Of a DNA stretch of 64,000 nucleotides, positions 1 through 54,582 are shown in pieces. The stretch is from NCBI RefSeq assembly GCF_053078305.1, contig NZ_CP166879.1; one strand, written 5' to 3'. Each line of letters begins with the position of its first letter. Position 1 is the first letter of the stretch. The notes under the pieces were generated by a model. That model was not told the DNA's origin. It did not search any database and saw only the letters and a program-made list of their open reading frames with translations. The translations under genes were made by a program, and so were the position numbers.

Positions 1-834
1 GAACCGGTGGTGGTGCCTCTTTCAGTCCGTGGCAGCAGTACGGTACAACCCGGGGCACCGGTATCCGGGATCCGGTCTGAAGTACCGGAGTGTCAACCGG
101 ATACGGATACAGAGGCGATGCCGGAAAGCACAGTCTCCATATTCCCCGGTACTGAGCGCGAGCAACATGGTATTACCCGGCCACTGAAAGCCGTGTCTGA
201 TACTGACACAGAGCGCACTGAAAAATGCAGTCGACCTTCTCAGGAAGAGAGCGCAGGCAGGGGGGACAGTGGGGCGTCTTCTGCTGAAAATGCCCTGCGT
301 CCTGAGATACAGCCGGATATGTACGGTGGTAAGCCAGTCTTCAGTGGTGATGTTATGGAAGATGGTGCTGCCGGAGCAGTACTGGCATCAGTTATGACAG
401 GAGATACTGCTCCGGGAACCACTGATGCTCTTCCCGCGTCGGTGACGCACTTTGCTGTGGGGCGGGATGATATCGAACATCTGCAGAATGAAGCGTTCCG
501 TCTGGCCTGGGAACTGGCTGAATCAGCCGGTTGTGCTGAAGAGATTGCCATGGACAGGGAAAGCGACCTGTCTGCCGGTTTCGGGGCAACAGTGGAGAAA
601 TGTTCTCCTGTAGTGGCGTTTCTGGCGGGTCTGGCCGGTGATGCACCGCGGACAGTCCTCCCCGTGAGTCTGAAAGACCTGCTTACAGGGGGCAGTGCAC
701 CGGAAGCGTGGCCACTGCTGGATGACGACCATGCCGTGAAGCTGCTGCGTCTTCTGAGTGTGCTGCGCCGCCTGAGAGCCCTGCAGCGCAGTGTATTACC
801 CGACGACGATGAGGGGGATGAGAATGATGAGTGA
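1..834 (+). CDS. hypothetical protein, 5' end probably truncated by window edge
   Basis: Frame 1 is open from position 1 with no upstream stop; ORF track reports 7..834 from the first GTG. Acidic C-terminus. No recognisable motif. Confidence 0.45.
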   Translation, partial: EPVVVPLSVRGSSTVQPGAPVSGIRSEVPECQPDTDTEAMPESTVSIFPGTEREQHGITRPLKAVSDTDTERTEKCSRPSQEESAGRGDSGASSAENALRPEIQPDMYGGKPVFSGDVMEDGAAGAVLASVMTGDTAPGTTDALPASVTHFAVGRDDIEHLQNEAFRLAWELAESAGCAEEIAMDRESDLSAGFGATVEKCSPVVAFLAGLAGDAPRTVLPVSLKDLLTGGSAPEAWPLLDDDHAVKLLRLLSVLRRLRALQRSVLPDDDEGDENDE

Positions 835-1552
835 TATGTCGCATCAGGAACGTCTGATCAGGCGGGTCAGGAAACTGCTGGAGCTGAGCCGTAATAACAG
901 CAATGCCCATGAGGCCGGGCTGGCGCTTGCAAGGGCGCAACAGCTGATGGCGAAACACGGTATCACGGAGCAGGATGCCGGACTTTCTTCGGTGCAGACC
1001 TCTTCATCACAGGGGGCACCTTCTGATGCTGAAAAAGTTCCGGCGTGGATGTTTCGTCTGGTCATGGTGGTGACACAGACATTTGGCTGCCGGGCGTATT
1101 ACGACTGGCGGGCGGTGCCCGGAGGCCGGTATCGCCGGTGTGTGACGTTTTACGGTTTCAGTGAACGTCCTCAGGTGGCGGCTTATGCGTTTGATGTTCT
1201 GTGCCGTCAGCTAAGGGAAGCAACGGATGCGTATCTTCGTACACAGAGCCGGAGACTGAAACTGAGCACCCGTCGTGCCCGGGCGGCTCAGTTTCGTGAT
1301 GGCTGGGTTCAGGGGATTCGTCAGGTGGTGATGCCATTCAGTGTGACAGAAGAGGAAAGTCGGCTGATGCGTCTCTGGATGGAGCAGCAGGATATGGTGA
1401 CGGTGGACTCCCGTGAGATGAAAGCCTGTCGCGGCGGTGACCTGGCCCGCTGGCAGGGGTATGAGGCCGGGAAAAATGCCTCACTGCATCATGGTGTGGG
1501 GGAGAGTGCCCGACAGGTGGTGCCGGGTCTGATGATACGGGAGGCGTCATGA
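824..1552 (+). CDS. hypothetical protein with N-terminal helical domain resembling DUF2786
   Basis: ORF 791..1552; internal ATG at 824 follows a GAGGGGG RBS. N-terminal RKLLELS..NAHEAGLALARAQQLMAKHGI pattern typical of DUF2786-type proteins. Overlaps upstream gene, suggesting coupling. Confidence 0.5.
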   Translation: MMSDMSHQERLIRRVRKLLELSRNNSNAHEAGLALARAQQLMAKHGITEQDAGLSSVQTSSSQGAPSDAEKVPAWMFRLVMVVTQTFGCRAYYDWRAVPGGRYRRCVTFYGFSERPQVAAYAFDVLCRQLREATDAYLRTQSRRLKLSTRRARAAQFRDGWVQGIRQVVMPFSVTEEESRLMRLWMEQQDMVTVDSREMKACRGGDLARWQGYEAGKNASLHHGVGESARQVVPGLMIREAS

Positions 1553-2157
1553 ATAACAGCTTGTCTCAGGCAACCAACGGTCTGCTGATGCAACTGGTGA
1601 TGGACCTCAAGAGCGGCTACCTGCGTCGCTGCGAATCTCTGGGGCTGGCCCGGGAGGAAATGCAGATGCTGCAGGGACTGACCATTGAGGAAATTCATTA
1701 CCTGTCAAACTCTGAAGTGTCGGTTATCCGGCTGGACATTAATCATGAAAACCTGCTGCGTATGCTGCAGCAGGCCCGGACGGAGCAGAAACGTCTGCAG
1801 CGCATTGACCGGGCACTGGCGCTGGGAGGCTCCATTGAACTGATGGCGTTTTACTTTGGACTTTCCAGTGTGGATGTGGCAGCGCGCCGTCGCATTGCCG
1901 GTATTGATGTTCGCCCGGGACGTGGCATCACACTGAGTGATGAGGAAAGTGCAGAGCTGTGGCGTTTATGGCAGAAGAGCGGCATCACAGATGTGGAAAG
2001 TGCGGACGGACTGGATGTCATGATGCTGGCAGCTGAGCAAATGAATATCCCGCTGACGGCGGTATGGCATGCAGTGAGGGGATGGCATCAGGGAACTGCG
2101 GGGTTTAATGATGTATCGGCCAGTCGCCGGAAACTGAACCGGGAAAAAGCAGAATGA
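1549..2157 (+). CDS. hypothetical ICE replication-region protein (possibly STY4526/DUF2857-like)
   Basis: 202-aa ORF with 4-bp overlap to upstream gene, same strand as STY4528-like gene downstream. Family assignment from memory, unverified. Confidence 0.45.
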   Translation: MNNSLSQATNGLLMQLVMDLKSGYLRRCESLGLAREEMQMLQGLTIEEIHYLSNSEVSVIRLDINHENLLRMLQQARTEQKRLQRIDRALALGGSIELMAFYFGLSSVDVAARRRIAGIDVRPGRGITLSDEESAELWRLWQKSGITDVESADGLDVMMLAAEQMNIPLTAVWHAVRGWHQGTAGFNDVSASRRKLNREKAE

Positions 2158-3510: not shown

Positions 3511-3978
3511 ATGGCTATTGCAGAGAGAATGGGTATCTCCTCGCGCGGCGATACTTACGAAATCTGGTTGGGAGCAAACTGTTATCACTACCGCTCTGAT
3601 GGTTATGCAGTGCTTCTGAAAGAAGGCAGGAATCGTGCTTATCCATGTCGGGTGACGAGTGAAACGATTAAATCTGCGCTGGCAGCAATTGTTGAATTGC
3701 AACAGAAATTAACTGCGGCAGAGAAGAAAAAGGAGTGTGAGAACCACGGGGTTCTTTTGCCAGCTGAGATGTTAATTCGCTGTCTGGAAGATCAAACAGG
3801 GGGACGGTGGATCCGTGCACATGAACCAGTAATGCTGATGAAACGATTAATCAGTAACCTGAAAAAAGCCAGACCAGAATGTACCGTTCCTGATGAAGCG
3901 CTGGCATATCTCCGGCGTAACTGTCTGGTGAATATGGGCGATATACCCGTTACCAGCAGACGGATGTCTGACGTATAA
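3511..3978 (+). CDS. hypothetical protein
   Basis: 155-aa ORF starting 3 bp after upstream stop; RBS AAAGGGGAA upstream. Confidence 0.5.
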   Translation: MAIAERMGISSRGDTYEIWLGANCYHYRSDGYAVLLKEGRNRAYPCRVTSETIKSALAAIVELQQKLTAAEKKKECENHGVLLPAEMLIRCLEDQTGGRWIRAHEPVMLMKRLISNLKKARPECTVPDEALAYLRRNCLVNMGDIPVTSRRMSDV

Positions 3979-3995
3979 CAAAAAGGAAAAGTGTA

Positions 3996-4571
3996 ATGAC
4001 ATTACCCGTAGACAGCCTGATTGCGTACACGCTGGAAAAAATGCAAGAGCGGATAGTGCAGAAAGGCCGACAACAGGACGGAAAAATACAAAGCGGACTG
4101 CTGTTTACCGGAAATGTGCATGATGCCATTCCGCGTCGACTGCTTCTGGATACTCGACTTTCTCCGCTGGATAAGATGGCGTGGATGATGATTCGGCTGT
4201 ATGCACAGAATAATGAAGGTGCAGTTTTCCCCACATATGACGAACTGCAACTGCAGCTTGCTTCCCCGGGGAAAGGAAAAGCCTCCAGGGAGACTGTCAG
4301 CCGGGTGCTGCTGATGCTGCGGATCACGGGCTGGCTGAGTCTGTGCAAACGGGTGCGTGATGAGAAAGGGCGGGTACGGGGCAATATTTATGCCCAGCAC
4401 GATGAACCGGTGACGTGCCGGGATGCTGAAATACTGGATCCACGTTATCTGGATATGGTGGCAGATGCCTGTATGAGCCGGAACCGGACCATAAGTCAGA
4501 CGGCCCGGGATATTCTGTGCGAAATAAAAAATGATCCGGGGATGCGTCATTATCACAGCCATATCAGTTAA
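3996..4571 (+). CDS. STY4528-family pathogenicity-island replication protein-like (putative winged-helix DNA-binding)
   Basis: 191-aa ORF; recognised by similarity of sequence pattern and position to the SPI-7 STY4528 family. Followed immediately by a palindromic motif array. Confidence 0.5.
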   Translation: MTLPVDSLIAYTLEKMQERIVQKGRQQDGKIQSGLLFTGNVHDAIPRRLLLDTRLSPLDKMAWMMIRLYAQNNEGAVFPTYDELQLQLASPGKGKASRETVSRVLLMLRITGWLSLCKRVRDEKGRVRGNIYAQHDEPVTCRDAEILDPRYLDMVADACMSRNRTISQTARDILCEIKNDPGMRHYHSHIS

Positions 4572-4650
4572 CTGGAAGCCCGGATAGGGAGTGCCCAGAC
4601 ACCGGGACAGATGGCGGCCCGTCAGCGGGTGACTGAGGACCGAATGCAGC

Positions 4651-4862
4651 CGGGTTCGGAAACCGAACCGGGGGTAGAAACACAGAGTTCGGTATTGAAA
4701 ATGCTGAGTTCGGATTCCGAACTCAGTGAAAAACAGGGGCAAAAAATACTGAGTTCGGATTCCGAACCATCAGAAAAATCAGAAGGTTATCACAGAGTTC
4801 GGAAACCGAACCATTACGTACGTAATATCACACACAGTGTGATTAAAAACACGTACGTATTG
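4651..4862. promoter_or_regulatory. array of palindromic GTTCGGA(A/T)(A/T)CCGAAC motifs plus adjacent perfect palindromes; candidate operator/origin
   Basis: Palindromes at about 4654-4668, 4706-4724, 4751-4768, 4795-4812, a half-site near 4685-4692, then TTACGTACGTAA (4814-4825) and ATCACACACAGTGTGAT (4827-4843). Lies between the STY4528-like gene and the RBS-supported start at 4905. Confidence 0.45.
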
Positions 4863-4904
4863 CCTGAAGCGCTGACAGGGCAAATCAGGGAGGAGGAGGC
4901 CATT

Positions 4905-5240
4905 ATGCTGACCAGTCAGTTGCAGGCGCTGCCGGAAGAACTGGCGCAGGGGGTTCTGGAAAGTCTGTCAGGGATGCTGGGCAGCCACTCGCTGCAGAAT
5001 CCTGTGGGCTGGTTGCTTGCAGTGCTGAAGCGAGCCCGGGAGGGAAATTTTTATCCGCCGAAGCAGAAACAACGTGTTGTTGTGCCAGCCTCCGTACTGG
5101 CAGGAGAAAGGGGGCGAGCTACTGCGCAATCAGTTTCATCGGGGAAACGTACGGAACCGATTTCAGCAGAACGTCTGAGTGGCATTGTGGCTGGATTACG
5201 GGCCTCGCTGCGCAGATGTTCTGCGATGAGACCTGAGTGA
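4905..5240 (+). CDS. hypothetical protein
   Basis: ORF track 4611..5240; the internal ATG at 4905 follows a very strong GGGAGGAGGAGG RBS, and the upstream part of the ORF is filled with palindromic repeats, so I take that part as non-coding. Confidence 0.45.
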   Translation: MLTSQLQALPEELAQGVLESLSGMLGSHSLQNPVGWLLAVLKRAREGNFYPPKQKQRVVVPASVLAGERGRATAQSVSSGKRTEPISAERLSGIVAGLRASLRRCSAMRPE

Positions 5241-5339
5241 TTGCGATACGGGCTATGTTCGCGGGAATAAAAATCAACCAGTGCCGCCAGCGACTGGTTA
5301 AAAAGAAAACAGAATCGGGAACTGGTCAGGTGAAACAAG

Positions 5340-5582
5340 GTGGTAAATAGCATGCAGAAATACAAACAGGAAAGTCTGAGTGCAGCCATGAAAGAAAGTG
5401 GCCTGTTGATCGCTAAAATTTGTGCCTGCGTGATTGCCGGAGTGGTGGTTATCTGGGGACTGGTGACAGGCACAGAGACCCTGCTCACTGCGCTGAAAAC
5501 AATGCACGAACAGTACGATAACAGTATGTGTTATATCGTATGTGCCACAGGGTGGTTTTTCCTGGTGTTAAGTAACTGGCTG
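5340..5582 (+). pseudogene. N-terminal fragment of a membrane-protein gene interrupted by IS66-family insertion
   Basis: GTG 5340 ORF reads into the IS end at 5583. The same frame resumes exactly after the target-site duplication at 8104 and continues to 8352. Confidence 0.6.
5575..5582. repeat. left 8-bp target-site duplication (ACTGGCTG) of IS66-family element
   Basis: ACTGGCTG immediately left of the IS end matches ACTGGCTG at 8096-8103 immediately right of the other end. Confidence 0.8.
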
Positions 5583-5612
5583 GTAAGCGTCAACGGAGCA
5601 CCGTATTGACGC

Positions 5613-7205
5613 TTATTTATTGGTGAGTACTACGTTCCATGGCAAGAGTTCATCAACTCGGTTGGAAGGCCATTCCGGCAGTACGCTCAGGATATGGCGC
5701 AGATACGCTTCCGGATCGATACCGTTCAGACGGCAGGTGCCGATCAGCCCGTACAACAGTGCTCCACGCTCGCCGCCGTGATCGCTGCCAAAGAACATAA
5801 AGTTTTTCTTTCCGAGACAGACTGCACGAAGCGCTCTTTCCGCAGCATTATTATCCGCCTCCGCCAGACCGTCATCACTGTAATAACAGAGGGCATCCCA
5901 CTGATTCAGTACATAGCTGAACGCTTCGCCCAGTCTGGATTTTTTCGACAGCGTACCATTCTTCTCCACCATCCATTCATGCAGCGACGTCAGTAACACT
6001 TTGCTTCGCTGCTGCCTGACGGAAAGACGCTCTGACTCCGGTAATCCCCGTATTTCATCCTCGATGGCGTACAGTTCACTGATTCGCTTCAGGGCTTCTT
6101 CTGCCTTCGCACTTTTGCTGCTGATGTATACATCGTGGATTTTTCGCCGGGCATGGGCCCAGCACGCAACTTCTGTCAGTGCACCACCTTCACGTTCTGC
6201 ACTGAACAACCTGTCGTAACCTGTGAACGCATCCGCCTGCAGGATACCCCGGAAGGGGCGGAGGTGTTGCTCCGGGTGTTTCCCCTGCCGGTTCGGCGAG
6301 TACGCGAACCAGACCGCTGGAGGAGATGACGAACCCACATTGCGATCATCCCGGACATACGTCCAGATACGCCCTGTTTTCGCCTTTTTCTGACCCGGTG
6401 CCAGTACCTTTACCGGTGTGTCATCAGTGTGAACCTTGCGGGTGTTCATTACATAACGGTACAGGGCATCATTCACCGGTGTCATTAACTGGCAGCACGC
6501 GTCAACCCAGTTGGAGAGTAAGGCCCGGCTCAGTTCGACACCCTTGCGGGCAAAGATTTCACTCTGACGATACAGTGGCAGATGTTCGCAGTATTTTCCC
6601 GTTAACACGCGGGCAAGTAATCCGGGGCCCGCGATACCACGCTCTATCGGGCGGGACGGCGCCGGTGCTTCAACGATGCAGTCACATTTTGTACAGGCTT
6701 TTTTTACCCGTTCTGTGCGGATCACTTTCAGGGCGCTGCTCACCAGTTCCAGTTGTTCTGCACTGACTTCCCCCAGATAATCCAGCTCACCGCCACACTC
6801 CGGGCAACAGCTTTCTTCAGACTCCAGACGGTGTATTTCACGGGGAAGGTGTGCCGGTAACGGACGACGATGGCGCGACTGTCGCAACTGGCGGGGAACC
6901 TGTGGATCGTCTTCCCGCCCACTGTAACGATCGCTGTCCTGTTCGCGTTGTTTCAGCAGGGCCTCAGCCTGTTCAACTTCACGACGCAGTTTTTCAGAAC
7001 GGGTACCGAACAGCATCCGGCGCAGTTTTTCTATCTGAGCCCGCAGATGTTCTATTTCCCGTTCATCTTCTTCGATCTTTTCTTCGGCACGTGCCAGTGC
7101 AGAGCGCAGGAAGGCCTCCGTCTCTTCAACCAGACTCAGTTGCTGGTCTTTCTGACGGAGCTGGCTTTCCAGTTCTGCAATGCGAATGAGGTATTTCTGA
7201 CTCAT
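5613..7205 (-). CDS. tnpC: IS66-family transposase (TnpC / Orf3)
   Basis: 530-aa ORF with N-terminal leucine-zipper-like coiled coil, CPECGGE zinc-finger motif and the conserved IS66 transposase core. Confidence 0.9.
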   Translation of the reverse strand: MSQKYLIRIAELESQLRQKDQQLSLVEETEAFLRSALARAEEKIEEDEREIEHLRAQIEKLRRMLFGTRSEKLRREVEQAEALLKQREQDSDRYSGREDDPQVPRQLRQSRHRRPLPAHLPREIHRLESEESCCPECGGELDYLGEVSAEQLELVSSALKVIRTERVKKACTKCDCIVEAPAPSRPIERGIAGPGLLARVLTGKYCEHLPLYRQSEIFARKGVELSRALLSNWVDACCQLMTPVNDALYRYVMNTRKVHTDDTPVKVLAPGQKKAKTGRIWTYVRDDRNVGSSSPPAVWFAYSPNRQGKHPEQHLRPFRGILQADAFTGYDRLFSAEREGGALTEVACWAHARRKIHDVYISSKSAKAEEALKRISELYAIEDEIRGLPESERLSVRQQRSKVLLTSLHEWMVEKNGTLSKKSRLGEAFSYVLNQWDALCYYSDDGLAEADNNAAERALRAVCLGKKNFMFFGSDHGGERGALLYGLIGTCRLNGIDPEAYLRHILSVLPEWPSNRVDELLPWNVVLTNK

Positions 7206-7235
7206 GACCGTTTTTATAATGCGGTCAGGATTTTT

Positions 7236-7586
7236 TTACAACATTGTCAGTGAGTTACGGCGGGATGTTTTTGGCTGACGCCAGTCCAGCTTATCGAGGA
7301 GCATTGCCAGTTGCGAGCGGGTAATGGATACCTTGCCGTCACGTACCGCAGGCCAGATAAACTGGCCTTCCTCCAGGCGTTTAGTGAACAGGCACAGACC
7401 ATCAGCATCAGCCCAAAGAATTTTAACGGTGTCACCCCGTCGGCCACGGAAGATAAACAGGTGACCGGAGAAGGGATTATCATTCAGCACATGTTGTACC
7501 TGTTCTCCCAGTCCGTTGAAGGATTTACGCATATCGGTAACGCCGGCAACGAGCCAGATACGGGTACCTGATGGGAGTGAGATCAT
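7236..7586 (-). CDS. tnpB: IS66-family accessory protein TnpB (Orf2)
   Basis: 116-aa ORF typical of IS66 Orf2, 4-bp overlap with tnpA. Confidence 0.85.
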   Translation of the reverse strand: MISLPSGTRIWLVAGVTDMRKSFNGLGEQVQHVLNDNPFSGHLFIFRGRRGDTVKILWADADGLCLFTKRLEEGQFIWPAVRDGKVSITRSQLAMLLDKLDWRQPKTSRRNSLTML

Positions 7587-8008
7587 CTTCCCCTCCCGGT
7601 CAGTTCACGGATCAACACCGTGAGCAGCTCTGGCGATGGATTTTCCAGCGTCATGTTACCGTGACGGAATTCCACCTTGCAGGAGCTGGCACTGACTCTG
7701 GTCTGAGAGGTAGTGGATAAAGATGGCGCAATGGCCACCACAGGTTCTTTCTGCTCATCCGGCGTTATTTCTACAGGTAATAATTCAACGCCAGTGTCAG
7801 AAGAGGTCGTTACCGGAAGACGCCGCGAAACACGCCCTTCGTTCTGCCAGAGCCTGAGCCATTTGAACAGGAGGTTATCATTGATATCGTGTTCCCGGGC
7901 GATACGGGCAACAGAGGCTCCTGGTTGCAAAGCCAGTTTAACCATTTGAAGTTTAAAATTATTTGAAAATGATCTGCGGGGTTCTGCGGATAATGTTTTT
8001 TGCTCCAT
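7583..8008 (-). CDS. tnpA: IS66-family TnpA (Orf1), helix-turn-helix protein
   Basis: 141-aa ORF at the 5' end of the IS66 operon; N-terminal HTH-like region. Confidence 0.8.
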   Translation of the reverse strand: MEQKTLSAEPRRSFSNNFKLQMVKLALQPGASVARIAREHDINDNLLFKWLRLWQNEGRVSRRLPVTTSSDTGVELLPVEITPDEQKEPVVAIAPSLSTTSQTRVSASSCKVEFRHGNMTLENPSPELLTVLIRELTGRGR

Positions 8009-8103: not shown

Positions 8104-8352
8104 TGGATCACATACAGTCTTTATAAAGCGCGTACAGGCAGTACAGTCGGAGGGGGCCTGCAATTTATGCTCCTCCTGAGTCTGCTGGCAGAATGCTTTT
8201 CATTTTTTGTGATTTTCTGGTCATTGTCTCATCTGGATATAACCGACATTCAGTTGCTCGTGATGGGGATAACAACATTAATGCTGTTTTTGTCTCTGAA
8301 CGTTAAGGTAGTAGTCATCATTAACCATGTTGCCAGTGGCAACAGTGATTAA
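8104..8352 (+). pseudogene. C-terminal fragment of the IS66-interrupted membrane-protein gene
   Basis: In frame with 5340..5582 once the IS and one TSD copy are removed; hydrophobic sequence (ORF track 8167..8352 is its tail). Its 3' end runs into the first unit of the tandem palindrome array. Confidence 0.5.
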
Positions 8353-9120
8353 AAAGCGAGCGGTGTTGCCAGTGGCAACAGAGTACAGAAAATAGTCAAT
8401 GGTGCCAGTGGCACCAGAGTACAAAAAATACTCAATGGTGCCAGTGGCACCATAGTATAAAAAATAGCCAATGGTGCCAGTGGTACCAGAGTACAAAAAA
8501 TAGCCAATGGTGCCAGTGGCACCAGAGTACAAAAAATAGCCAATGGTGCCAGTGGCACCATAGTATAAAAAATAGCCAATGGTGCCAGTGGCACCAGAGT
8601 ACAAAAAATAGCCAATGGTGCCAGTGGCACCAGAGTACAAAAAATAGCCAATGGTGCCAGTGGCACCATAGTATAAAAAATAGCCAATGGTGCCAGTGGC
8701 ACCAGAGTACAAAAAATAGCCAATGGTGCCAGTGGCACCATAGTATAAAAAATAGCCAATGGTGCCAGTGGCACCAGAGTACAAAAAATAGCCAATGGTG
8801 CCAGTGGCACCATAGTATAAAAAATAGCCAATGGTGCCAGTGGCAACAGAGTACAGAAAATAGTCAATGGTGCCAGTGGCACCAGAGTACAAAAAATAGT
8901 CAATGGTGCCAGTGGCACCATAGTATAAAAAATAGCCAATGGTGCCAGTGGCAGCAGAGGTTAAAAAGCGAACAGTGCAGCCAGTGGCAGCAGAGGTTAA
9001 AAAGTGAACAGTGCTGCCAGTGGCAGCAGAGATTAAAAAATGAGCAGTGCTGCCAGTGGCAACAGAGGTTAAAAAGTGAGCGGTGTTGCCAGTGGCAACA
9101 GCGATTAAAAAATAAGCGGC
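8329..9120. repeat. tandem array of about 22 units of 36-37 bp, each with a 15-bp palindrome G(G/T/C)TGCCAGTGGCA(C/A/G)C; candidate centromere-like or iteron array
   Basis: Central about 16 units near-identical, alternating two variants (72-bp higher-order period). Flanking units diverged, with GTTGCCAGTGGCAAC and GCTGCCAGTGGCAGC cores. Confidence 0.85.
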
Positions 9121-9216
9121 GTTAAATGTATATTCTGCCTGATTTGTTTTTTTGTTGTCGGTAATACGCAACCTGCGGACTATCTTCTGGTCATGAAATC
9201 ATTCGGAGTAAACACA

Positions 9217-9921
9217 ATGCCCCAGGAGAAAACCGGAGAAGTCAGAAAATCAGAACAAGTTGGTGCTCTGCAGTCATCGCTGACTATTGCCCTTCATACC
9301 CGATATGCGATCCGTCTCTGGGAGGGACGCAGGAATAATCAGAAGGAAGAAAAACAGGAAAAGCGGCCTGACATCATCAGTATGCCCAGGGCTATTGCGT
9401 TTGCGGGTCAGGCAACCAGAGATTCAGCCAGGGATAATCCTTATGCAGATATGATGTTAGTCAGGCTGGAAAATGCCCTGACGAAGGCAACTGAAACAAT
9501 TGAAAAGCATCTTGCGTGGCTTGACGGGATCCTTAAAAACCTGCCGGGACAGATCTCCCTTTCTGATATTAAATCCTCTTCGCCGGTAAATATTGGCGTG
9601 TACAGTAGTTCTCCGGTCGGTTATCGATGTGTATGGCTTCTGATCGGATATGATCGACTGGTCATGAAGGTATTTCAGGTATTTCATTACGGACTTATTT
9701 CCCGCACAAAACGGGATGAGTTGCTGAATCAGGGAGGGTATGCGGTACGCAGGATTTACGGGATTATTCAAAATTATAAATCAGTCAGTGTTACACGTGC
9801 TGATATTTTGTCCGGCACAGCCCGTGGAAAGGAGGCGGTTAACCGCATGGGGGAGCCGGATCCTGACGTGATGAGCGGTAAGAAACGTTCTGTTTATTCA
9901 CCACCGGTTAAAGCGGGGTGA
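9217..9921 (+). CDS. hypothetical ICE backbone protein
   Basis: ORF track 9193..9921; ATG 9217 preceded by GGAG RBS. 4-bp overlap with topB. Confidence 0.5.
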   Translation: MPQEKTGEVRKSEQVGALQSSLTIALHTRYAIRLWEGRRNNQKEEKQEKRPDIISMPRAIAFAGQATRDSARDNPYADMMLVRLENALTKATETIEKHLAWLDGILKNLPGQISLSDIKSSSPVNIGVYSSSPVGYRCVWLLIGYDRLVMKVFQVFHYGLISRTKRDELLNQGGYAVRRIYGIIQNYKSVSVTRADILSGTARGKEAVNRMGEPDPDVMSGKKRSVYSPPVKAG

Positions 9922-9923
9922 GT

Positions 9924-11966
9924 ATGCAACTCTTTCTGTGTGAAAAACCTTCTCAGGCGAAAGATATCGCCCGTGAACTGGCGCTCAGTAAGCGGGGCGA
10001 CGGATACATCGGAGATGACAATATTGCTGTCACCTGGGCGATAGGACACCTGCTGGAACTGGCTGAGCCGGAAGCTTACGGTGAACAGTTCGGTTCCCCA
10101 TGGCGTTCTGATGTGTTGCCGCTGATACCGGAACAATGGCAGATGGTGGTGAAGCCGAAGGTGAAAAAACAACTTATTGTGATCCGGGGGCTGTTAAAAC
10201 GCGCTTCTGAAGTGGTTATTGCCACAGATGCCGATCGTGAAGGAGAAGTGATAGCCAGAGAGTTGCTGGAGTACTGTCAGTACAGAGGGCGTGTCAGGCG
10301 TCTGTGGTTATCTGCACTGGATGAGGCCAGTATCAGGAAGGCGCTGAATAATATTCTCCCGGGCGAACAGACTGCGCTTCTCAGTGAAGCCGGTAAGGGG
10401 CGTGCCCGGGCTGACTGGCTGACAGGGATGAATCTGACCCGGTTGTATACCCTGAAGGCACGGGAACGTGGAATTTCTGGGGTTTTGTCAGTGGGCCGGG
10501 TGCAGACACCCACGCTGGCAATGGTGGTCAGACGGGATCAGGAGATCGCCACATTTGTGCCGGTTTCCTGGTGGCAGGTGATTGTCTGGCTGGAAAAGGA
10601 GGGGCTCCGTTTCCGCAGTAACTGGGTGGCAGCTGAGCAGTACTGCGATGATGAGGGACGTTGTGTGAATGTGCAGGCGGCCGGTGCTGTTCTCGGTCTG
10701 TGCCGTCAGCAGTCCTCTGCTGTTGTACAGGATGTTGTACAGAAGAGGGAGAAAACACCGCCACCTTTGTGTTTTTCGCTGGGAACGTTGCAGGACGCCT
10801 GTTCCCGGAAGTTTGGCATGGGGGCTCAGACCGTTCTGGATATCGCACAGTCCCTTTATGAGACTCACAAAGCAACAACTTATCCCAGGACAGACTGTGG
10901 TTATCTGCCTGCCTCGATGCATGAGGAGAGTTCTGAAGTGCTTGAGGCTGTCGGGCGTTCAGATCCGTCCGTGCTTCCACAACTGGCTGAACTGGAATCA
11001 GGACGGGTATCCCGTATCTGGAATGATAAAAAAATTACGGCTCACCATGCCATTATTCCGACCCGGCAGTTTTTTGACCTCAGCTTACTGAACGGTGATG
11101 AACTGAAGGTATATCAACTGATTCGTCAGCACTATCTGGCACAGTTTCTGCCGGAGCAGGAAGCCGATGTTACTGAGGCAACATTTGTGATTGGGGGGCA
11201 GTTATTCCGTTCCCGCGGAAGAGTGAATGTGATTATCGGGTGGAAACAGTTATTTCCACCGGAAAATCATGCAGATGAAGAAAAGCCTGACAGTGATGAA
11301 AGTGGAAACATATTGCCCCCTTTGATAAAGGGAGAACTCTGTGCTCTGGATGGTGCTGAACAGAAGGAGCTGAAAACCGTACCTCCCCGTCCTTTTACTG
11401 AAGGCAGTCTTATTACTGCGATGAAGAATGCTTCGTCTGGTGTAACGGATCCGGTGCTGAAAAAGATCCTGAGGGATAATGCGGGACTGGGAACGGAAGC
11501 CACACGCGCGGGGATCCTGGAAACGTTATTTGCGCGCAACTATATTGAGAGAGCGGGAAAACATATCCGTTCCACGCAACTGGGAAGAGAACTGGTGGCG
11601 GCATTGCCGGACTCTCTGACAAATCCGGGTATGACGGCTTTATGGGAACAGGCGCTGGATGATGTTGCCCGGGGGAAAATCTCACTGGAGGCGTTTATGG
11701 AGAAACAGCATCAGTGGATCAGGCACCTGGTGTTATCCGGACGTAACCAGACGGTTAATCTGTCAGTGGAATCAGGTCCTTCATGTCCACTCTGTAACGG
11801 TCCGACGGTGAAACGGAAGGGAAAAAGCGGTTTTTTCTGGGGATGCTCCCGTTATCCCGACTGCAGGGGAATTGCTGGTGAGCAGGGAAACAGCAGGGGC
11901 AGGAAAAGAAAAATTAATTTTTCTCATAAACAAAAATCTGGTGATGTCGGAGACAAACTGAATTAA
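9924..11966 (+). CDS. topB: DNA topoisomerase III
   Basis: MQLFLCEKPSQA start typical of TopB, Toprim and topoisomerase IA core, C-terminal zinc ribbon CPLCNGP...CSRYPDC. Standard ICE backbone gene. Confidence 0.9.
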   Translation: MQLFLCEKPSQAKDIARELALSKRGDGYIGDDNIAVTWAIGHLLELAEPEAYGEQFGSPWRSDVLPLIPEQWQMVVKPKVKKQLIVIRGLLKRASEVVIATDADREGEVIARELLEYCQYRGRVRRLWLSALDEASIRKALNNILPGEQTALLSEAGKGRARADWLTGMNLTRLYTLKARERGISGVLSVGRVQTPTLAMVVRRDQEIATFVPVSWWQVIVWLEKEGLRFRSNWVAAEQYCDDEGRCVNVQAAGAVLGLCRQQSSAVVQDVVQKREKTPPPLCFSLGTLQDACSRKFGMGAQTVLDIAQSLYETHKATTYPRTDCGYLPASMHEESSEVLEAVGRSDPSVLPQLAELESGRVSRIWNDKKITAHHAIIPTRQFFDLSLLNGDELKVYQLIRQHYLAQFLPEQEADVTEATFVIGGQLFRSRGRVNVIIGWKQLFPPENHADEEKPDSDESGNILPPLIKGELCALDGAEQKELKTVPPRPFTEGSLITAMKNASSGVTDPVLKKILRDNAGLGTEATRAGILETLFARNYIERAGKHIRSTQLGRELVAALPDSLTNPGMTALWEQALDDVARGKISLEAFMEKQHQWIRHLVLSGRNQTVNLSVESGPSCPLCNGPTVKRKGKSGFFWGCSRYPDCRGIAGEQGNSRGRKRKINFSHKQKSGDVGDKLN

Positions 11967-43103: not shown

Positions 43104-43348
43104 TCAGGATCTGATGGAGGTTTTTTACGAGAATTAAACTTATCGATCAGATTAAAAACTATCGCTGCTAGTGTTATCGATGTACCTGCTATGCACCCAA
43201 ACACAATAACTCTTATCATTTGGTGGGTCGGGAAAAAAAAGAATCCTTTTGTTAGGTAAATAAATAAAGCTCCTCCCCCCATCAAAAGAAATCCACTGAT
43301 GATACAAAAGAGGCATGCATATATGAACAATACAATGTAAGCAATCAT
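43100..43348 (-). CDS. cdiI: CdiI immunity protein (small two-TM membrane protein)
   Basis: 82-aa ORF whose start overlaps the cdiA stop (ATGA); two hydrophobic helices. Confidence 0.65.
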   Translation of the reverse strand: MIAYIVLFIYACLFCIISGFLLMGGGALFIYLTKGFFFFPTHQMIRVIVFGCIAGTSITLAAIVFNLIDKFNSRKKPPSDPE

Positions 43349-46300
43349 TTCCCCTCCTCCTTCTTCGCGCTAGAAGAGAACTGATTATTACTACTTGCTT
43401 CTTTTATATATCCACCAAGAAATTCACTACCAAAAGATCCTGTCGCATCAAATATAAATCCCGGAAACTCTTTCCCAGTAACTGAGTTTACTATTCCGGG
43501 AGCATATACTCCAAATGCTCCACCCAATCCGGCCCCGGCAGCAGCCCCTCCAATAGAGCCTGTATTTGGACCATCGGTAAAGAATGCACCACCCATCGCA
43601 ATTCCGACGTTTTGTCCGACAGTTCTCCCCGGCGCAAGCATACCCGCAATGCCTGAACTGGCACTGCTTTTCCAGTCCCAGTTTTTGTTTTCATTACCTG
43701 GCTGGCTTAAATCAAACCACTGGTAACTTCCATTGGCTATCTCCGCGACGACTCCACCACTGACCATTTTACCGACCGAAGCAGCAGGCCCCAGATACCA
43801 TGCCCCGGCAATCATTACACCATCCTGATATCCATCCACGATCACTTTCGTGATATTGGTGCTGTCCGGCATATCACCTTTCGCTATCTTATCCAGTCCA
43901 GCCTGTGTTTGTTCCGGTGTCAGATTATTGTCCACCGCGTACTTGTTCCATGATGTAGCCGCAGCAGCATTGCTTTCAAAACCATCACCGAAGCTGAGCG
44001 CATTATTCTCAACCGTCGTCTTACCTGACTGTGCTCCGGCTACCGCTGAAGCTCCCGAATCTCCCACCAGACCACCGGCCAGGCCGGCAGCAACCGTTGC
44101 CAGTGTCGAGACCGTCTGCTTCTCTGTCCCGCTCAGTTCACTCACCGGCTTACCGTACATCTGTGTGGCTATCATTCCCACCACCTCGCCGGTGGCTGCG
44201 CCTGCGGCACCAGCCAGAGCATTCTTACCCTGTGCCAGAGACAGGGCTGCATTCACTACTGCATGAGCTGCCACACGTCCCGCACCGTCCGGGGTGGTCT
44301 GTTTGATAATTTCAGCAATATACGGTGCTGCACCACCTGCCAGGGCTGCACTCAGATTACCGCCGGCCAGCCCCTGTACTGCTGCCGTTGCGGCCTGTAT
44401 CGCCTGCTGGTATTTGCCTCCCGTTCCAAAACCTGAGGCCGCCATACCGTTATTGTAGGCCCGCTGCGCCACATCCTGTTCCGTGAACGGTTTTCCTGCT
44501 GCCTCAAGCTCCTCACGGGCCTGATTCAGTGCTGCCGGGTCCCGCTTCGCTTTCTCACCAGCTATCTGGCCTTCCGTTCTGGCAATATCTGCCACCTGGT
44601 TACCAATCTCACCAATGAGCTGCGCCTGCTGCAGTCGCTGCTGCTCTTTTTCCCTGTCAAAGATGGGGGACAGCGTCTGGTTTGCATGTGCTGCGTCACG
44701 GTTCAGGTCTGCCACATCCTGTTTCTGGCTCTGCGTATCCCGGATGGTGATATTCCCGGCAGACACAGCCGACTGAGTGGTGCTTTCTGCATGGCCTTCA
44801 TGATTTGCACCAACCAGCAGATTGTTGGCCATATTTCCCGCGAACTGGCCACCGATGCTGCCGCCAGTGCTGATACCCACGCTCTGGTGTTCAACTTTGT
44901 AATCAGCACGATTTTCGATATCACGGAAGCCCAGTGTACCGGTATCCAGCCGGTTTTTATCTGCCGTTGCCGTGGACGCAATCACCGCACCGTTCAGTTG
45001 CGTATGCTGTCCGGTGGTGACATCAAACCCGCCCCTGCCGGCAAAAATCCCCGTCTGCTCCTGCACACTGTCATAGTTACTGTGCATTTTATCCCGGCTG
45101 AGGCTCACACTCGCCGAACCGCTCATGGACCCGAAAGTGAAGCTGCCTCCGGCACTGGCATTCTGCTGCTTACTGTCATAACGGTCACTGTCCTGCTCAC
45201 TGGTCAGTGTCAGATGACGACCGGCATCCACTTTCACCGTTTCACCGCCGGCCTGCACGCCGGTAAGCGTGGTGTCCCGCCCGCTGATAATGGTCAGGCG
45301 GTTTCCCGCATCCACCGTGGTTTCTGTATGGGTGGTACCGTTGCCTTTTTCACTGCCCTTACCCTGGTTTGCGCTGGCTGAAACACTGATACCCCAGCCT
45401 CCGGCCCCCACACCGATACCGACACCCACACTGCCGCCACTGGATGAGTTCTTTCCTTCCAGCTTTGACGTGTTTTCTGCTGATACCAGATTCACGTCAC
45501 GGTTTGCCTGCAGCAGAACGTTGTTCCCTGCCTTTATCTGACTGCCCTGTATCGTCAGGTCACCATCCACGTCCTTCACGCCGGAGCCGGTGGCCTGAAT
45601 ACTGAGGTTATTACCTGCGGTCAGGGCGCTGTTCTTCGCCACCGTCTGCTCTGACTGCTGTTCTGATTTCGAAGACTGGCTGCCGTAAGAGAGGCTGATA
45701 CCCACGGCATTGTTATTCTCTTTCTGGTTGCCCTGTGCTTCTGCCAGTCGTCCGGCCTGCACGGCCTGAGCCCCCGAGAGCGCGGCCTTCACCCCCTGCA
45801 GGGCTTCAAGCCGGCTGTTTCCGGCAGATTTCGCCGCCTGCACGGTCTCCACCGTCGTGTTCAGGGCGCTGCCCACTGTGCCGGACAGGGCAAGCGTCAG
45901 ACCGGAGGTTTTCTGCTCCACCGAATGCGTCTGCACATGCCGGTCTGTGACGGCGCTAATGCTGACCTCCTTACCACTGAGTGCCATGTCCCTGCCGGCA
46001 ATCAGGTCAGCACTGTTGGCGCTCAGCCGGTTACCTGCCTGAAGGGAAACATCACCGTGAACACTCCCCACCGTGCTGCCTTTCTGTGTGCTGTCTGTTG
46101 CGGTGTCCGTGACTTTCAGACTCTGGCTGCCCACACTGAATCCCACACCTCCGGAGCTCATCAGCCCGGATTTTTTCTCCTGTTTCAGGTGTGTTTCACG
46201 GTTGCTTTCTGTCAGCGTGCCGATACTCAGGTCATTTCCGGCAGCCAGGGAGACACGGTTATCCCCGGCCACACTGCTGCCCGTGACGTTCAGATTATGT

Positions 46301-49300
46301 CCGGCACTGATACTGACCGTATCCCCGTTCAGTTCACTGCCCGTCATGGTCCGGCGGTCAGTGACATCATGCGTGGTTGTGGTGGTTTTCGATAACATCC
46401 CGCTGCTGCCGGTCACTTTATGGTATTCATCCAGCGAGCGGGTATTCTGTGCACCGGTCAGCGTCACGTCATGACCTGCCATCAGGGCCAGGCCTTTCTG
46501 AGCTGACAGCGATGCCGCCTGTGACGTCATATCCCGTCCGGCGGTCAGCGTGACATCACCGTTACCGGCAAGCGTGCTGCCCGTACTCTGTGTGACGCCC
46601 TGCGACAGACGATTATTTTTATCCCAGATAATATTGTCCTGCGCGGAAGTGGTCACTGTGGAAAGCGTCATATCCCTGCCCGCACTGAGTTGCGTCAGGC
46701 TGTCCTTACCCTGATTCACCACCGTTGCAGCCGTCAGATTCATATCCCGTCCGGCCTGCAGCACCAGTCTTCCCTGGTCGTTCTGCACATACACGCCGGC
46801 CACACTGTCGATACTGGTACGTTCAAAATGGTTCTGTCCGGCGTCGCGCTGTGCCGTACGGGTGGTGGTGGTCAGACTGATATCCCGTCCGGCCATCGCC
46901 AGCAGGCTGTCCGTGGCCTGCAGCAGCCCGCCGGTACTGTTAATATCCGTCCGGGCCGTCAGGCTGACATTTGCTCCCTGAATGGAGCCGGCCTGGTTGT
47001 GAATGTTTTCTGCACTGAGCTGCACGGTCTGCTTCCCGGCCAGTTTACCGCTGTTAAACAGGTCACCATCCAGCTTCATCACCATGTCCCTGCCGGCAAT
47101 CAGCGCACCGGCACTGTTCACATCACCGGGTTTTACACGGGCATACACCTGAGGTACCTGAACTGTCTGCGTGCTGCCGTCCGGCAGTGTCACCGTGGTG
47201 TTAACCAGCCAGACAATATCCCCGGTCAGTAACGCCATCTGCTCAGCCGTCAGCGCCACACCCGGTTTCAGGTTGTATTGCTTACCAAATGCAATACCCG
47301 CATCCATTAATGCCTTAAACTGCTCTTCATCACTGCCGTATCTGTCCAGGTACCGTTGCCCGGTCAGAGCGACAACCTGCTCTCGAATCAGACGCTGCTC
47401 GTAAAAACCGTCTCCCAGACGTTTGAGCATGTTATCCCCGTTCTGAGAAAACGCCTTCTGCATGTAATCACTGCCCAGCCACATCTTCTGGTTCGTAAAA
47501 CGCGGGTCCGTTTCAACCAGATATGGCACATTCACTGCCGGATTTGTTTTAAACAGACTGCTGTCCGGCAGACGGGTATCCGGCCCGGCAACATGGATAC
47601 TGCCCTGAGGTGTGCTGACTTCAAACTGCTGCCCCGGCAACAGAATGACCGGTTCACCGGCAGACACCACCGGGCGAAGCGGTATCCGGTCAGTAGCGGC
47701 TACTGCCGCATCCACATTTCCGGCCTGTCCTGTCTGTACATCCGTTCCCTGTGGCTTCAGAGGAGAAAGCGTGACCTGGCTGCCCTGAATCTGTCCGTGG
47801 CTGGTGAGCTCTCCCGGCTTCAGCGTAATGCTCTGAATTACAGTGGGCGGAGTGTACTGAGAGGTTTTCTCCCCCTGCTTATCCTTTCCTTTTTTCCTGA
47901 TACGGTAATAATACGTGGATGTTCCTGAGTCCGTAACATGCCGCTCGCCACTGACACTGACATTTTCCACGCTTCCTGACGGAATGGTCAGCAGGCCGCC
48001 TGCAACAACCTGACTCTTATCATTAAGCAGTTTGTCTGCCACAATCGTCATGCCGGCACCGGACAGAATTTTTCCCGGGTCGGAGTCTTTTACCCGGGTT
48101 TCTTCCACGGTACGGGTGTAATCATACTGCGTGAATTTATCTCTGGCGCCTTCCGGTGTATGCAGTTTTTTCAGTGAGTTACTGGAATCGTTATCCACAT
48201 AAACGCCCGGTTCACCGGCGCTCCAGCGTTTATCTGAGCCGCTGAGCTGATACTCAGTCACCTTTTCCGTGGAAACCACCACGCGCTCCGTGGTGAAATG
48301 GTCATTGACGTTATTGATTTGTCCGGCACTCAGTACCAGATATCCGGCGGCTTCAATAGTGGCACTGTGATTATTCAGTACACCGGCTTTCCCCGTGGCG
48401 GCACCATTCGCATCCAGCATGCCACCAGTATGCATATCACCTGCACTGTAAATCAGGCTGTGCGTCCGGTTATTCAGGGTCTGTACCCCTAAGTCCACAC
48501 GCTCACGCCCGGCCAGCGTCGCCGCCACGCCATTTTCTTCCAGATTATTAAATGTGGCAGCGCTGACACCAACAGCATCGCCGTAGATTCGCCCGGTACC
48601 GGAATTCGTCAGGGTGTTCGCCTGAAGATGCGTATATTTCCCGTCAATCAGCCCACGGTTCAGCAGTGTGTCCGTCACGTTAAGCCAGGTCTGCCCGGCA
48701 CTGATTTCACCTTTCTCTGTGTTTTCAAGGCGGATGCTGTTCAGGTCAAGCCGGCTGCCTGCCAGCAGGCTGCCGGTATTAGAGACATCGCCATTAACGG
48801 AAAGCGTAAGGTTTCCGTTCGCAATAGTCTGACCACTGTTGCTGAACGTTGTGTTACTTTTCAGCGTCATATCGCCCAGCGAAAGCAGTTTCCCGTCACC
48901 ACCGAGCTGACCGGCATCCACAGATACTGACTGCCCGGCCTTAACCACGCCGTCACGGTTCGAAAACGCCAGCTGACGGCCACTGACAGACAATGTCGCG
49001 CCGGAAGAGAGGACGCCGTCATTATTACTGAGCGTCCTGTCTGCCATAACCGTAAGCGCCCTGTCTGCCAGAATACTGCCCTCCTGGTTATCAAGGTCCT
49101 GCGTCGTGATGTGTATTGTCTGCGCTTCCAGCCCCTGACCGGTATTCTGCGTGTGGCGATTGATAAACTGCAGGGCGTTCAGCGTAATGGCGGAACCACT
49201 GCGAATCAGACCAGAGACGTTGTCCACAACGCCCCGTACACTGTTGAGCAACATGTCGCCCACAGACTGTATTTGTCCGTGGCTGTTCTGCAGACCTCCC

Positions 49301-52842: not shown

Positions 52843-54582
52843 TCAGAAATCCCGGAACAGATTAAAACCGGCTGTCACATCACTCGTCATAAAACCCGCC
52901 GGCTTTGAAAACGGACGACCGATGAAAACGTCATAATCCGTACTGAACAGTTGCCCCCTCAGCCCCACAACACCACCGGCCAGATGACGTCCCACCAGAT
53001 ATTCACTGCCGGCTCCCCCCACCTCGCCGTAATCCATTCCCAGATATAACGCCTGCTCCGGCAGTGGCGTACGCCAGGCCAGGTCGTTGCGGATATACCA
53101 GCCGTTACTGGCATTCAGCGTTCGCTCCCCGTCAAAACCACGAACCGTCCAGCGGTTACCGATGGCAAACTGTTCCTGTGGGGTCAGCGGGGTATTGCTC
53201 AGCTGGCGCTGATACCGGAAGGAATAACTGAAGGGCTGCTCTGCCAGTGTAAAGGGCAGATTAAAGGATGCATTCATCTGCAGGATCTTACTGAGCGCCG
53301 TTGCCTCACCGAAGATTTCCTCCGGTGCCGGCTGTGCACCAAACCAGCGGGTTCCCCGTTGCCAGCTGACACCAGCATCCAGTGTGGCCTGAGAAATATA
53401 ATGACGGTGCTGCAGCCCAAGTCGCCAGGCCGCTGTCTGCCGGCGCTGCACCTGGATTTCCGTATCATTAATGTAGTTACGCGACCTGCGGGCCTGAACA
53501 TCGTAAGTCAGCACCGTTTTCTGCGTCCCGTTACGATGCAGTACCCGGCTCAGCTGCATGCCCAGATTCTGACTCTCGCCACTGTACTGGTAATCCTCAA
53601 CCGCACCAGCTACCGTCTGATGGTAATCGTAATCACTGGCGGTGACGGAAAACTGCCAGTAACCGAAAGGCACAGAGTAATGGGCCGTGTAGTTTTTACT
53701 GCCCTTACCCCCGTAATGTGGAAAATTATGGGTGGCAGAAACATACAGCAGGTCACTCAGGGAAAAAGGATTATCCAGAGAAAATGTTATACCACCGAGA
53801 TAACGCCCTGTGCTGCGGGTACCTGAATCATCAAGCGAAAACCCCAGTCGCCAGTATTTATCCTGTTTACGGGTAATAAGAATATCACTTTCCCCTGGCT
53901 GCTCACCGGGCACAATTTCCATATCAGCCTGCACACCCGGCAGTCGTTGCATATTCTCCAGCCCCTGCTCAATGTCCCGTAAATCCAGCAGAGAACCTTC
54001 GTGTGCCGGGAATGAGGAATACAACTGAATATAGTCATCACTGTCCGGTGTCAGACGCACATGTCGCACAACACCGGGAATAACAACCAGCCGGAGGATA
54101 CCGCTTTTTAAATCCTGCGAAGGTGCCAGAACACGGGTGGTGACATAACCATGATCGACAAGACGGTTCTGCAATGTACTCATCAGCAGATTAATTCCTT
54201 TCGCCCCCAGGCAATGCCCGACCGCCCCGTTGGCGATTTTTTGTAAAGGCAGCCAGTGTGGTAACGCATCAGCCCCCTTCAGTTCCGTCTGTTTAATCTG
54301 AAAACAGGGCGTTTCAACAGGAAAATTAATCTTATGGGCAAAAGAGCCAGGTGCAGAAAGGCGAACATCAGGGGCTGAAGGCGTCAGTTGTTGCTCAAGG
54401 GCTTCCTGACGCTGCTGCTGAATGATAAATGTATCCTCTCCACTACGCCGGATATCCGCGGCCTGAAGAGATAAAGGCGATAATAAAACAGACATCAGTG
54501 TCAGTGATAAAATGAACGGACAGCGCCGGAATAAGCTTTGTTCCTCAGCCCTCTCGTTCCTGCAACATAATTTTCCAGCCAA
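52843..54582 (-). CDS. cdiB: CdiB, TpsB-family outer-membrane transporter
   Basis: 579-aa ORF directly upstream of cdiA on the same strand; signal peptide, POTRA-like region and C-terminal beta-barrel ending ...FNLFRDF. Start may instead be at an internal Met (about 54495). Confidence 0.85.

Follow-up and report, generated by a model that had tools for sequence, protein, structure and literature searches.

A palindrome array inside a STY4528-family replication gene of an integrative and conjugative element, a candidate origin of replication

We analysed a 64,000-nucleotide stretch of DNA (NCBI RefSeq assembly GCF_053078305.1, contig NZ_CP166879.1; hereafter the window), in which a cluster of palindromes at positions 4651-4862 lies within the replication and regulation module of an integrative and conjugative element (ICE) of the PFGI-1/SPI-7 class. 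With high confidence, this cluster is a cis-acting element that acts at the DNA level inside the coding sequence of one gene. The gene encodes the STY4528-family replication protein of ICEs of the PFGI-1/SPI-7/pKLC102 class, and it is broken by a nonsense codon in this particular sequence. The palindromes are under selection as DNA, and across the family their arrangement is conserved and co-varies with the protein. We infer that the gene's own product is their binding partner and that they serve as an origin. An earlier note, made from the sequence alone, had seen here a non-coding operator array or replication origin between two genes. Its observation is real and highly non-random; its gene model and its "non-coding" conclusion are wrong; and its suggestion of an origin is reasonable and had already been published for the Pseudomonas relative PFGI-1. 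What is added here is the intragenic position of the sites, the synonymous constraint on them, their reading in several frames and their co-variation with the protein.

One gene, split by a nonsense codon

The features that carry the argument are as follows.

3996..5240, plus strand: STY4528-family 'pathogenicity island replication protein' gene (rep gene), 414 codons, a pseudogene in the window through a single nonsense codon
4569..4571, plus strand: TAA nonsense codon 192 (CAA, Gln, in relatives), which parts the N-terminal winged-helix domain from the rest
4653..4669, no strand: iteron-like palindrome 1, GGTTCGGAAACCGAACC, translated G-S-E-T-E-P
about 4685..4700, no strand: degenerate fifth unit with the left half-site AGAGTTCGG only, followed by TATTGAA
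4704..4726, no strand: iteron-like palindrome 2, CTGAGTTCGGATTCCGAACTCAG, translated L-S-S-D-S-E-L-S
4753..4767, no strand: iteron-like palindrome 3, GTTCGGATTCCGAAC, translated S-S-D-S-E-P
4797..4811, no strand: iteron-like palindrome 4, GTTCGGAAACCGAAC, in the other codon phase, translated V-R-K-P-N
4812..4862, no strand: compound imperfect palindrome of 51 bp, made of ATTACGTACGTAAT, ATCACACACAGTGTGAT, an A-run and ACGTACGTA

The cluster itself is as first described. Four exact GTTCGGWWWCCGAAC palindromes start at 4654, 4708, 4753 and 4797, with a half-site at 4688; the further palindromes ATTACGTACGTAAT (4813-4826) and ATCACACACAGTGTGAT (4827-4843) follow, and ACGTACGT (4851-4858) closes the compound palindrome. 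The exact matches to GTTCGGNNNCCGAAC at 4654-4668 and 4797-4811 (AAA centre) and at 4708-4722 and 4753-4767 (ATT centre) are the only ones in the whole window, and 100 dinucleotide-preserving shuffles of it gave none. Two of the copies sit in longer dyads (4653-4669 and 4704-4726, the latter with 11-bp arms), and the start-to-start spacing of the dyads is 54, 45 and 44 bp. The compound palindrome codes for the conserved peptide HYVRNITHSVIKNTYV and falls within the local G+C minimum (0.38-0.43 at 4730-4880). On the minus strand, palindromes 2 (4704-4726) and 3 (4752-4768), each with a T-run, resemble intrinsic terminators; their role might be to block antisense transcription that would enter the rep gene, or they may be a by-product of GAAAAA (Glu-Lys) codons.

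The earlier note had placed the cluster between a STY4528-family gene and a small separate gene. In the best match, E. coli SI-NP020 (99.7% identical), the NCBI Prokaryotic Genome Annotation Pipeline (PGAP) gives instead a single STY4528-family coding sequence (CDS) of 1245 nt, equivalent to 3996..5240 of the window. Aligned over 4540-4900, the two sequences differ by three substitutions, one of which is the change of CAA to the stop codon TAA at 4569. The open reading frames (ORFs) 3996..4571 and 4611..5240 share one frame, broken only by the TAA at 4569-4571. A megablast search against complete E. coli genomes found related DNA in 97, of which 15 were at least 99% identical. The TAA allele occurs in no complete E. 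coli genome, none of the 33 matching ones being identical over 4500-4680 (best 98.3%). Neither truncated product was found by exact look-up in a collection of 15 billion proteins. The stop allele being thus private to this sequence, the palindromes occupy the central part of a single gene, broken here, and not a spacer between two genes. A free 191-aa DNA-binding domain could still be made from the stop allele, and might occupy the sites without initiating. As a matter of annotation, a nonsense mutation made one gene look like two with a repeat-rich spacer.

Nor does the supposed second gene stand, for which a start supported by a ribosome-binding site had been proposed at 4905. The ATG at this position is codon 304 of the full frame, and the Shine-Dalgarno-like run AGGGAGGAGGAGG before it is not retained in two E. 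coli genes that are 76-78% identical (loci L003 and L004). A conserved internal start was thus considered and rejected, Met304 being simply an invariant internal residue.

The repetitive LSSDSE... part of the frame had been taken as probably non-coding. We compared it with 80 further Enterobacterales loci (44-66% protein identity) and three more E. coli variants; the 80, the best of a contig scan, are Enterobacterales only. Of 84 homologous loci, which come from many genera, 81 keep an open frame through the palindromes, and the E. coli proteins of 414, 396 and 381 aa differ by in-frame losses of 18 or 33 residues (54 or 99 bp, equal to one repeat unit or two). This part of the gene is therefore translated. 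NCBIfam model NF040582 matches the intact allele with 414.3 bits (E 6e-124; curated cutoff 130 bits) over residues 33-353, straight across the palindrome-coded linker. The window copy lacks the intact full-length frame of the family, being interrupted by the TAA at codon 192.

Selection on the DNA and co-variation with the protein

Translation is one half of the matter, the other being that the DNA sequence itself is kept. Where a residue is shared by 60% or more of 79 distinct genes, the block of aa 238-288 has a normalised codon entropy of 0.27, compared with 0.79 for the N-terminal and 0.77 for the C-terminal domain (Mann-Whitney p = 2e-12). The six-fold-degenerate Ser and Arg codons of this block are fixed at 92-100%: Ser254 is TCG in 97% and Ser256 is TCC in 92% of the sequences that keep the serine, and CGT makes up 100% of the Arg276 codons, as GTA does of the Val275 codons, in 79 genes. 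Identity at third positions reaches 0.79 over 4791-4862, compared with 0.58 and 0.51 for the domains on either side, and the compound palindrome at 4812..4862 is nearly invariant in its nucleotides across Enterobacterales, third positions included. The earlier note had named conservation by codon position in the frame 4611..5240 as evidence that would count against it. The outcome is mixed: the homologues are coding, against the note, but the conserved positions are the third positions, as fits a DNA element. The region is thus both coding sequence and DNA element, and the repetitive LSSDSE... peptide is a by-product of selection on the DNA, not a sign of non-coding sequence.

The same conclusion follows from the frames in which the motif is read. 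In 82 genes, 124 copies are in phase 1 (S-S-x-x-E) and 47 in phase 0 (V-R-x-x-N), the phase-0 copy being the last one in 47 of 47 cases. All 171 matches to GTTCG-N5-CGAAC in these genes fall at 0.50-0.675 of the gene length, with none in 458 kb of their flanks, and 252 of 411 palindromes whose arms are 6 bp or longer fall in gene deciles 5-6. Spacings between dyads cluster at 33, 44-45 and 54 bp among the relatives; being near multiples of about 11 bp, they would align the sites along one side of the helix. Solitary arms are kept as well, for instance in the E. coli gene of locus L004. The dyad motif is independent of the reading frame: two frames are used here, and all three in the STY4528-family gene of pKLC102 (AEFGIRT, SSDAEL, SSDAEP, VRMPN).

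For more distant members, we fetched 11 loci one by one, a small sample from metagenomes and plasmids that includes pKLC102 and ICEHin1056; the family is also found on circular plasmids of Pantoea, Salmonella and Stutzerimonas. Distant members (26-33% identity, G+C content 34 to 67%) carry lineage-specific palindromes at the same position. Locus L086 has AGTTCCAATATGGAACT, translated SSNMEL, of which ICEHin1056 has a close variant; L085 has AGTTCCGAATTGGAACT, translated SSELEL; the ICEclc-like loci L094 and L095 have CTTCGGAWTCCGAAG, translated SSDSE(D/E) and LRNPK; and L087 and L090 have GTTCGGAATCCGAAC. The repetitive peptides of representatives of clusters at 50% identity (PSSNLELG, LSSNMELS, SSIRELS, PSSQSEPG and others) are likewise translated dyads. 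In most of the distant members the last copy is phase-shifted and is followed by a palindrome of alternating purines and pyrimidines, examples being TTACGTACGTAA, AGTACTAGTACT, TGTATATATACA, GTATTTATATAAATAC and CCGCGCGCGCGCGCGG. The composition after the last dyad varies with the lineage: TACGTACGTA, AGTACTAGTACT, TGTATATATACA, GTATTTATATAAATAC and (CG)7 occur among the window (4812-4862) and loci L085, L086, L090, L093 and L095, the homologous position holding (CG)7 in L095 and AGTACTAGTACT in other lineages. Because the composition changes in this way, the property that is kept is purine-pyrimidine alternation with symmetry and not A+T-richness. Such a palindrome may be prone to Z-DNA or cruciform formation.

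The protein offers a candidate partner for these sites. An AlphaFold2 model, built on an alignment of 39 diverse sequences, predicts an N-terminal winged helix with a predicted local distance difference test score (pLDDT) above 90 (helices 57-72, 81-87 and 98-110, wing 114-135), an unstructured stretch at residues 219-284 (pLDDT below 50) that coincides with the palindrome-coded part, and a helical C-terminal domain at 291-348. The protein also has weak PHROG matches to families of replication initiation (range of E 1e-3 to 0.05), namely 'replication initiation protein' at E 0.0011 and 'replication initiation O-like' at E 0.046. In the putative recognition helix, residue 99 (ASR-E-TV; window 4290-4292) is the first to be exposed, and it tracks the inner bases of the dyads, the class of site being taken from the encoded peptides. 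It is E in 9 of 11 lineages of the G class (GTTCGG), K in 6 of 10 of the A class (GTTCCA), and G, A or S in 7 of 8 of the C class (GTTCnC). This is the co-variation to be expected of a cognate pair of protein and site, and it makes residue 99 a candidate determinant of specificity.

The array as a candidate origin, and other readings

We lean towards the view that the array comprises binding sites for the product of its own gene and is, at the same time, the site where the plasmid-type replication of the element is initiated. Dimers of the N-terminal winged-helix domain would bind the GTTCGG-N3-CCGAAC dyads within their own gene, at distances (about 33, 44-45 or 54 bp) that are roughly whole helical turns of about 11 bp. 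The array and the adjoining alternating purine-pyrimidine palindromes would together form the start site of vegetative replication of the excised element, to which the C-terminal helical domain would recruit the DnaB-type helicase of the element or host factors. The array-encoded part of the protein would be no more than a flexible linker, so that selection for binding could act on the DNA without closing the frame. Of the two functions put forward by the earlier note, replication origin is still the best reading of a cis-acting array in a replication module; the idea of an operator over a promoter was dropped, since a scan of 3900-5400 found no sigma-70-like promoter.

The weighing of this view also involves the region downstream of the gene, which holds two further features.

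8367..9114, no strand: second array, a 36-bp tandem repeat in 20.8 copies, each unit with the palindrome TGGTGCCAGTGGCACCA and an A-run
5613..8008, minus strand: IS66-family element (tnpC 5613..7205, tnpB 7236..7586, tnpA 7583..8008)

The second array extends to about 8219-9166, with about 21-26 copies of the consensus TGCCAGTGGCACCAGAGTATAAAAAATAGCCAATGG, each containing TGGTGCCAGTGGCACCA as a perfect palindrome of 17 bp, and it lies just upstream of the PFL_4669-family gene at 9193..9921 (TIGR03761, 255 bits). SI-NP020 has about 10 copies of the repeat, contiguous with the rep gene. In pKLC102 an array of fifteen 57-bp units follows the STY4528-family gene and has the core TGGTGCCAnTGGCACCA in common with the 36-bp array of the window, and 31 of 80 relatives have arrays of 36-bp period, with lineage-specific palindromes, that begin directly behind the rep stop codon. 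Two minus-strand ORFs, 8278..9171 and 8349..8939, cross the 36-bp repeats and are probably spurious.

Several points weigh against an origin in the rep gene. The second, conserved palindrome array just downstream could be the real iteron set; it may equally be a copy-control array or a centromere. Replication of ICEclc in transfer-competent cells has been attributed to the origin of transfer (oriT) and the relaxase. The region after the dyads is not generally A+T-rich, as it is (CG)7 in G+C-rich relatives, so that a simple "DNA unwinding element" fails as an explanation. DnaA boxes (TTATNCACA) number four in the window, which is not above chance, and none lies within 7 kb of the array. The co-variation of residue 99 with the sites is confounded by phylogeny, gene and sites being always inherited together. 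The fold evidence for the protein is generic. Pfam gave no family for the intact protein even at E <= 10, so that by sequence it belongs neither to RepA_N (PF06970) nor to Rep_3; a sequence-profile search of the PDB returned only spurious matches (ribosomal protein S17 and a low-complexity Ser-run); and Foldseek found no match in the PDB below E 0.39. Finally, in the papers on PFGI-1 (PMC2647930), ICEHin1056 and clone C (PMC7685784), the origin of vegetative replication (oriV) is called putative or postulated.

One might suppose that the STY4528-family protein does bind the palindromes, but for another purpose: autoregulation, as a roadblock in its own transcript; 'handcuffing' in copy-number control or incompatibility; or a centromere-like anchor with ParA/Soj, replication being initiated at the 36-bp array or at oriT. 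All the evidence for a cognate pair of protein and site fits this equally well. The larger second palindrome array that follows the gene in many relatives is part of the postulated oriV, and, at 44-54 bp, the spacing resembles that of sopC-type centromere repeats more than that of typical 22-bp iterons. We nevertheless find such a purpose unlikely. There is no promoter-like site in or near the array, the layout of N-terminal domain, site-coded linker and C-terminal domain is the one documented for initiators with the origin in their gene, and the best structural neighbours of the protein are initiators and primosome proteins, not partition adaptors.

Much less probable is that the palindromes are parS-like loading sites for the large ParB-family protein of the element, the homologue of BisD encoded upstream. 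The dyads, at 15 bp, do have the size of parS, and a ParB-family gene and a DUF2857 (BisC-like) gene are always found just upstream. But the equivalent in ICEclc, CTTCGGAtTCCGAAG ('bisS-3', in orf96323), nucleated no mCherry-BisD foci, when the unrelated GAGCTATCCCCnGGGGATAGCTC sites did so (PMC12409273). Exactly this CTTCGGAtTCCGAAG palindrome is carried by the STY4528-family genes of ICEclc-like loci, which makes the result direct evidence against this reading; the assignment of orf96323 itself to the family is drawn from synteny (bisC/DUF2857, then orf96323).

We give as little credit to an element acting in RNA, in which hairpins in the transcript of the rep gene would govern translation, pausing or decay, and a minus-strand hairpin with a U-run would terminate antisense transcripts. 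The predicted fold of 4640-4870 is far more stable than that of shuffled sequences (z = -7.8), a figure that is uninformative because any palindrome array gives a low z trivially; two terminator-like matches on the minus strand also coincide with palindromes 2 and 3. Against this, what is kept from E. coli to Pseudomonas is the sequence of the arm itself (GTTCGG) and not just its pairing, solitary half-sites persist without a partner arm, many copies have a centre of 1 nt, unable to form an RNA loop, and the spacing is near multiples of about 11 bp. Hardly credible, finally, is the original picture, an operator or origin array in non-coding DNA that separates a short STY4528-like gene from a small one at 4905. 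In its favour, the stop at 4569 leaves the region of the window untranslated from the upstream start, and a strong Shine-Dalgarno-like run precedes the ATG. But the stop is private, 81 of 84 relatives have an uninterrupted ORF, Met304 is internal and invariant and the run is not retained in L003 and L004; the variant of this picture, in which the repeats matter only as peptide, cannot explain fixed synonymous codons or one DNA motif in two or three frames.

Coming back to the array as binding sites and origin of its own gene's protein, we would extend this reading, tentatively and with rather less assurance than for the window, to the whole SPI-7/PAPI-1/pKLC102/ICEclc/ICEHin1056 superfamily. 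The vegetative origin of these elements may consist of initiator-binding dyads in the initiator's own disordered linker, read in two to three frames and diversifying (GTTCGG, CTTCGG, GTTCCA, GTTCnC) with one residue of the recognition helix (E, K, or G/A). If so, the superfamily, which includes SPI-7 of Salmonella Typhi, PAPI-1 and pKLC102 of P. aeruginosa, the Haemophilus resistance ICEs and the clc element, would possess a self-contained, co-evolving specificity module that sets the incompatibility groups of its ICEs. These elements are known as multicopy circles, with an oriV so far only postulated; pKLC102, for one, can be present in as many as 30 extrachromosomal copies (PMC7685784). Three findings narrow a vague "1.1-kb oriV region" down to a precise and testable hypothesis: the position of the published palindromes in the STY4528-family gene, the strong selection on their synonymous sites and their co-variation with a recognition-helix residue of its product. 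The hypothesis specifies the binding protein, its sites and the residue that sets its specificity.

The copy of the module in the window is probably defective, given the nonsense codon upstream of the array and the IS66 element just downstream, and its degeneration bears on whether this copy of the ICE can maintain itself after excision. The IS66 element sits in a small hypothetical gene after the rep gene and parts the latter from the 36-bp array. The interrupted gene is an intact 159-aa CDS in SI-NP020 (9453-9932 of that locus, L001); its 5' part starts from 5353 of the window, within ORF 5340..5609. Around them lie the genes of the module, namely dnaB-PI, ParB-family, DUF2786, DUF2857, STY4528-family, PFL_4669-family, topoisomerase III, STY4534-family, SSB, pilL2, TraD and TraC. 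The ParB-family and DUF2857 genes (window 7..2157; also L085-L095) are counterparts of ICEclc BisD and BisC, which are activators of transfer competence, and not a classical partition pair. The order ParB-like, DUF2857, STY4528-family is kept across the superfamily and, where the contig extends, AcaB/PFL_4669-family and then usually SSB follow, the PFL_4669-family gene of the distant loci having a Pfam AcaB domain. Further along the window, on the minus strand at 43345-52290, is a gene for a 2981-aa protein of filamentous-haemagglutinin type with beta-helical repeats (TIGR01731, and TIGR01901 for the N-terminal domain), presumably a two-partner-secretion cargo of the ICE; the neighbouring 579-aa ORF upstream of it (52843..54582) may be its transporter.

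Comparison with known systems

The closest comparison is PFGI-1 of Pseudomonas protegens/fluorescens Pf-5, an element of the same family, whose putative oriV lies directly upstream of PFL_4669, with two halves, four copies of the perfect palindrome CTGAGTTCGGAATCCGAACTCAGT and then four 46-bp direct repeats (Mavrodi et al. 2009, PMC2647930). The window has the same palindrome at the same position. Its palindrome 2 (CTGAGTTCGGATTCCGAACTCAGT) matches CTGAGTTCGGAATCCGAACTCAGT in 23 of 24 bases; four full copies and a half-site stand upstream of the PFL_4669-family gene, as in the oriV of PFGI-1 and pKLC102; and the 36-bp array is the counterpart of the second half, displaced by IS66. In pKLC102 of P. 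aeruginosa, four copies of GTTCGG(C/A)(A/T)(T/G)CCGAAC lie in the STY4528-family gene. The available portion of the PFGI-1 oriV description makes no mention of the palindromes lying in a translated ORF. A full-text literature search with the palindrome string brought up nothing but unrelated primer sequences, and searches on ICEclc iterons and on origins within coding sequence in ICEs found nothing relevant.

In ICEclc, bisS-3 (CTTCGGAtTCCGAAG), "located in a gene annotated as orf96323", was a candidate ParB-like site, and mCherry-BisD foci formed on bisS-1 and bisS-2, not on bisS-3 (Antar et al. 2025, PMC12409273). It is a 7-bp inverted repeat in the gene after bisC (DUF2857), the syntenic place of the STY4528-family gene, with one listed copy against the array of four or five in the window.

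The origin of phage lambda consists of four dyad-symmetric iterons in gene O, between the parts for DNA binding and for interaction with the helicase loader, followed by a melting region. Here too the dyads lie in the coding sequence of the gene itself, between an N-terminal and a C-terminal domain, and a distinct palindromic region comes after them. Sequence similarity to lambda O is not significant (the O-like PHROG match, E 0.046). The lambda iterons, of about 19 bp, are closely packed, whereas the dyads of the window are 44-54 bp apart, and the region that follows is A+T-rich in lambda but an alternating purine-pyrimidine palindrome here, (CG)7 in G+C-rich relatives.

The RepA_N replicons offer a further parallel. 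Their iterons are semi-palindromes that converge on an A-tract (PMC7145576), and the Rep protein of pSK41 binds to four Rep boxes that lie centrally in its own gene, the central domain encoded by the origin being a dispensable linker (PMC5703833). There are differences: the STY4528-family protein has no Pfam RepA_N match at E <= 10, its hosts are Proteobacteria, its element is an ICE with a DnaB helicase of its own, its dyads are perfect and 44-54 bp apart, and a second tandem array comes after the gene. The likeness is one of plan. As in pSK41, a three-part layout is predicted, with an N-terminal winged helix, an origin-coded linker and a C-terminal domain for contacts with the host or replisome; and as in pSK41 and RepA_N, the repeats are central in the rep ORF (0.50-0.675) and code for a linker (pLDDT below 50); in the STY4528 family they vary in number in frame. 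If the origin is indeed where we suppose it to be, the STY4528-family module would be a Gram-negative counterpart of the RepA_N replicons, unrecognisable by sequence.

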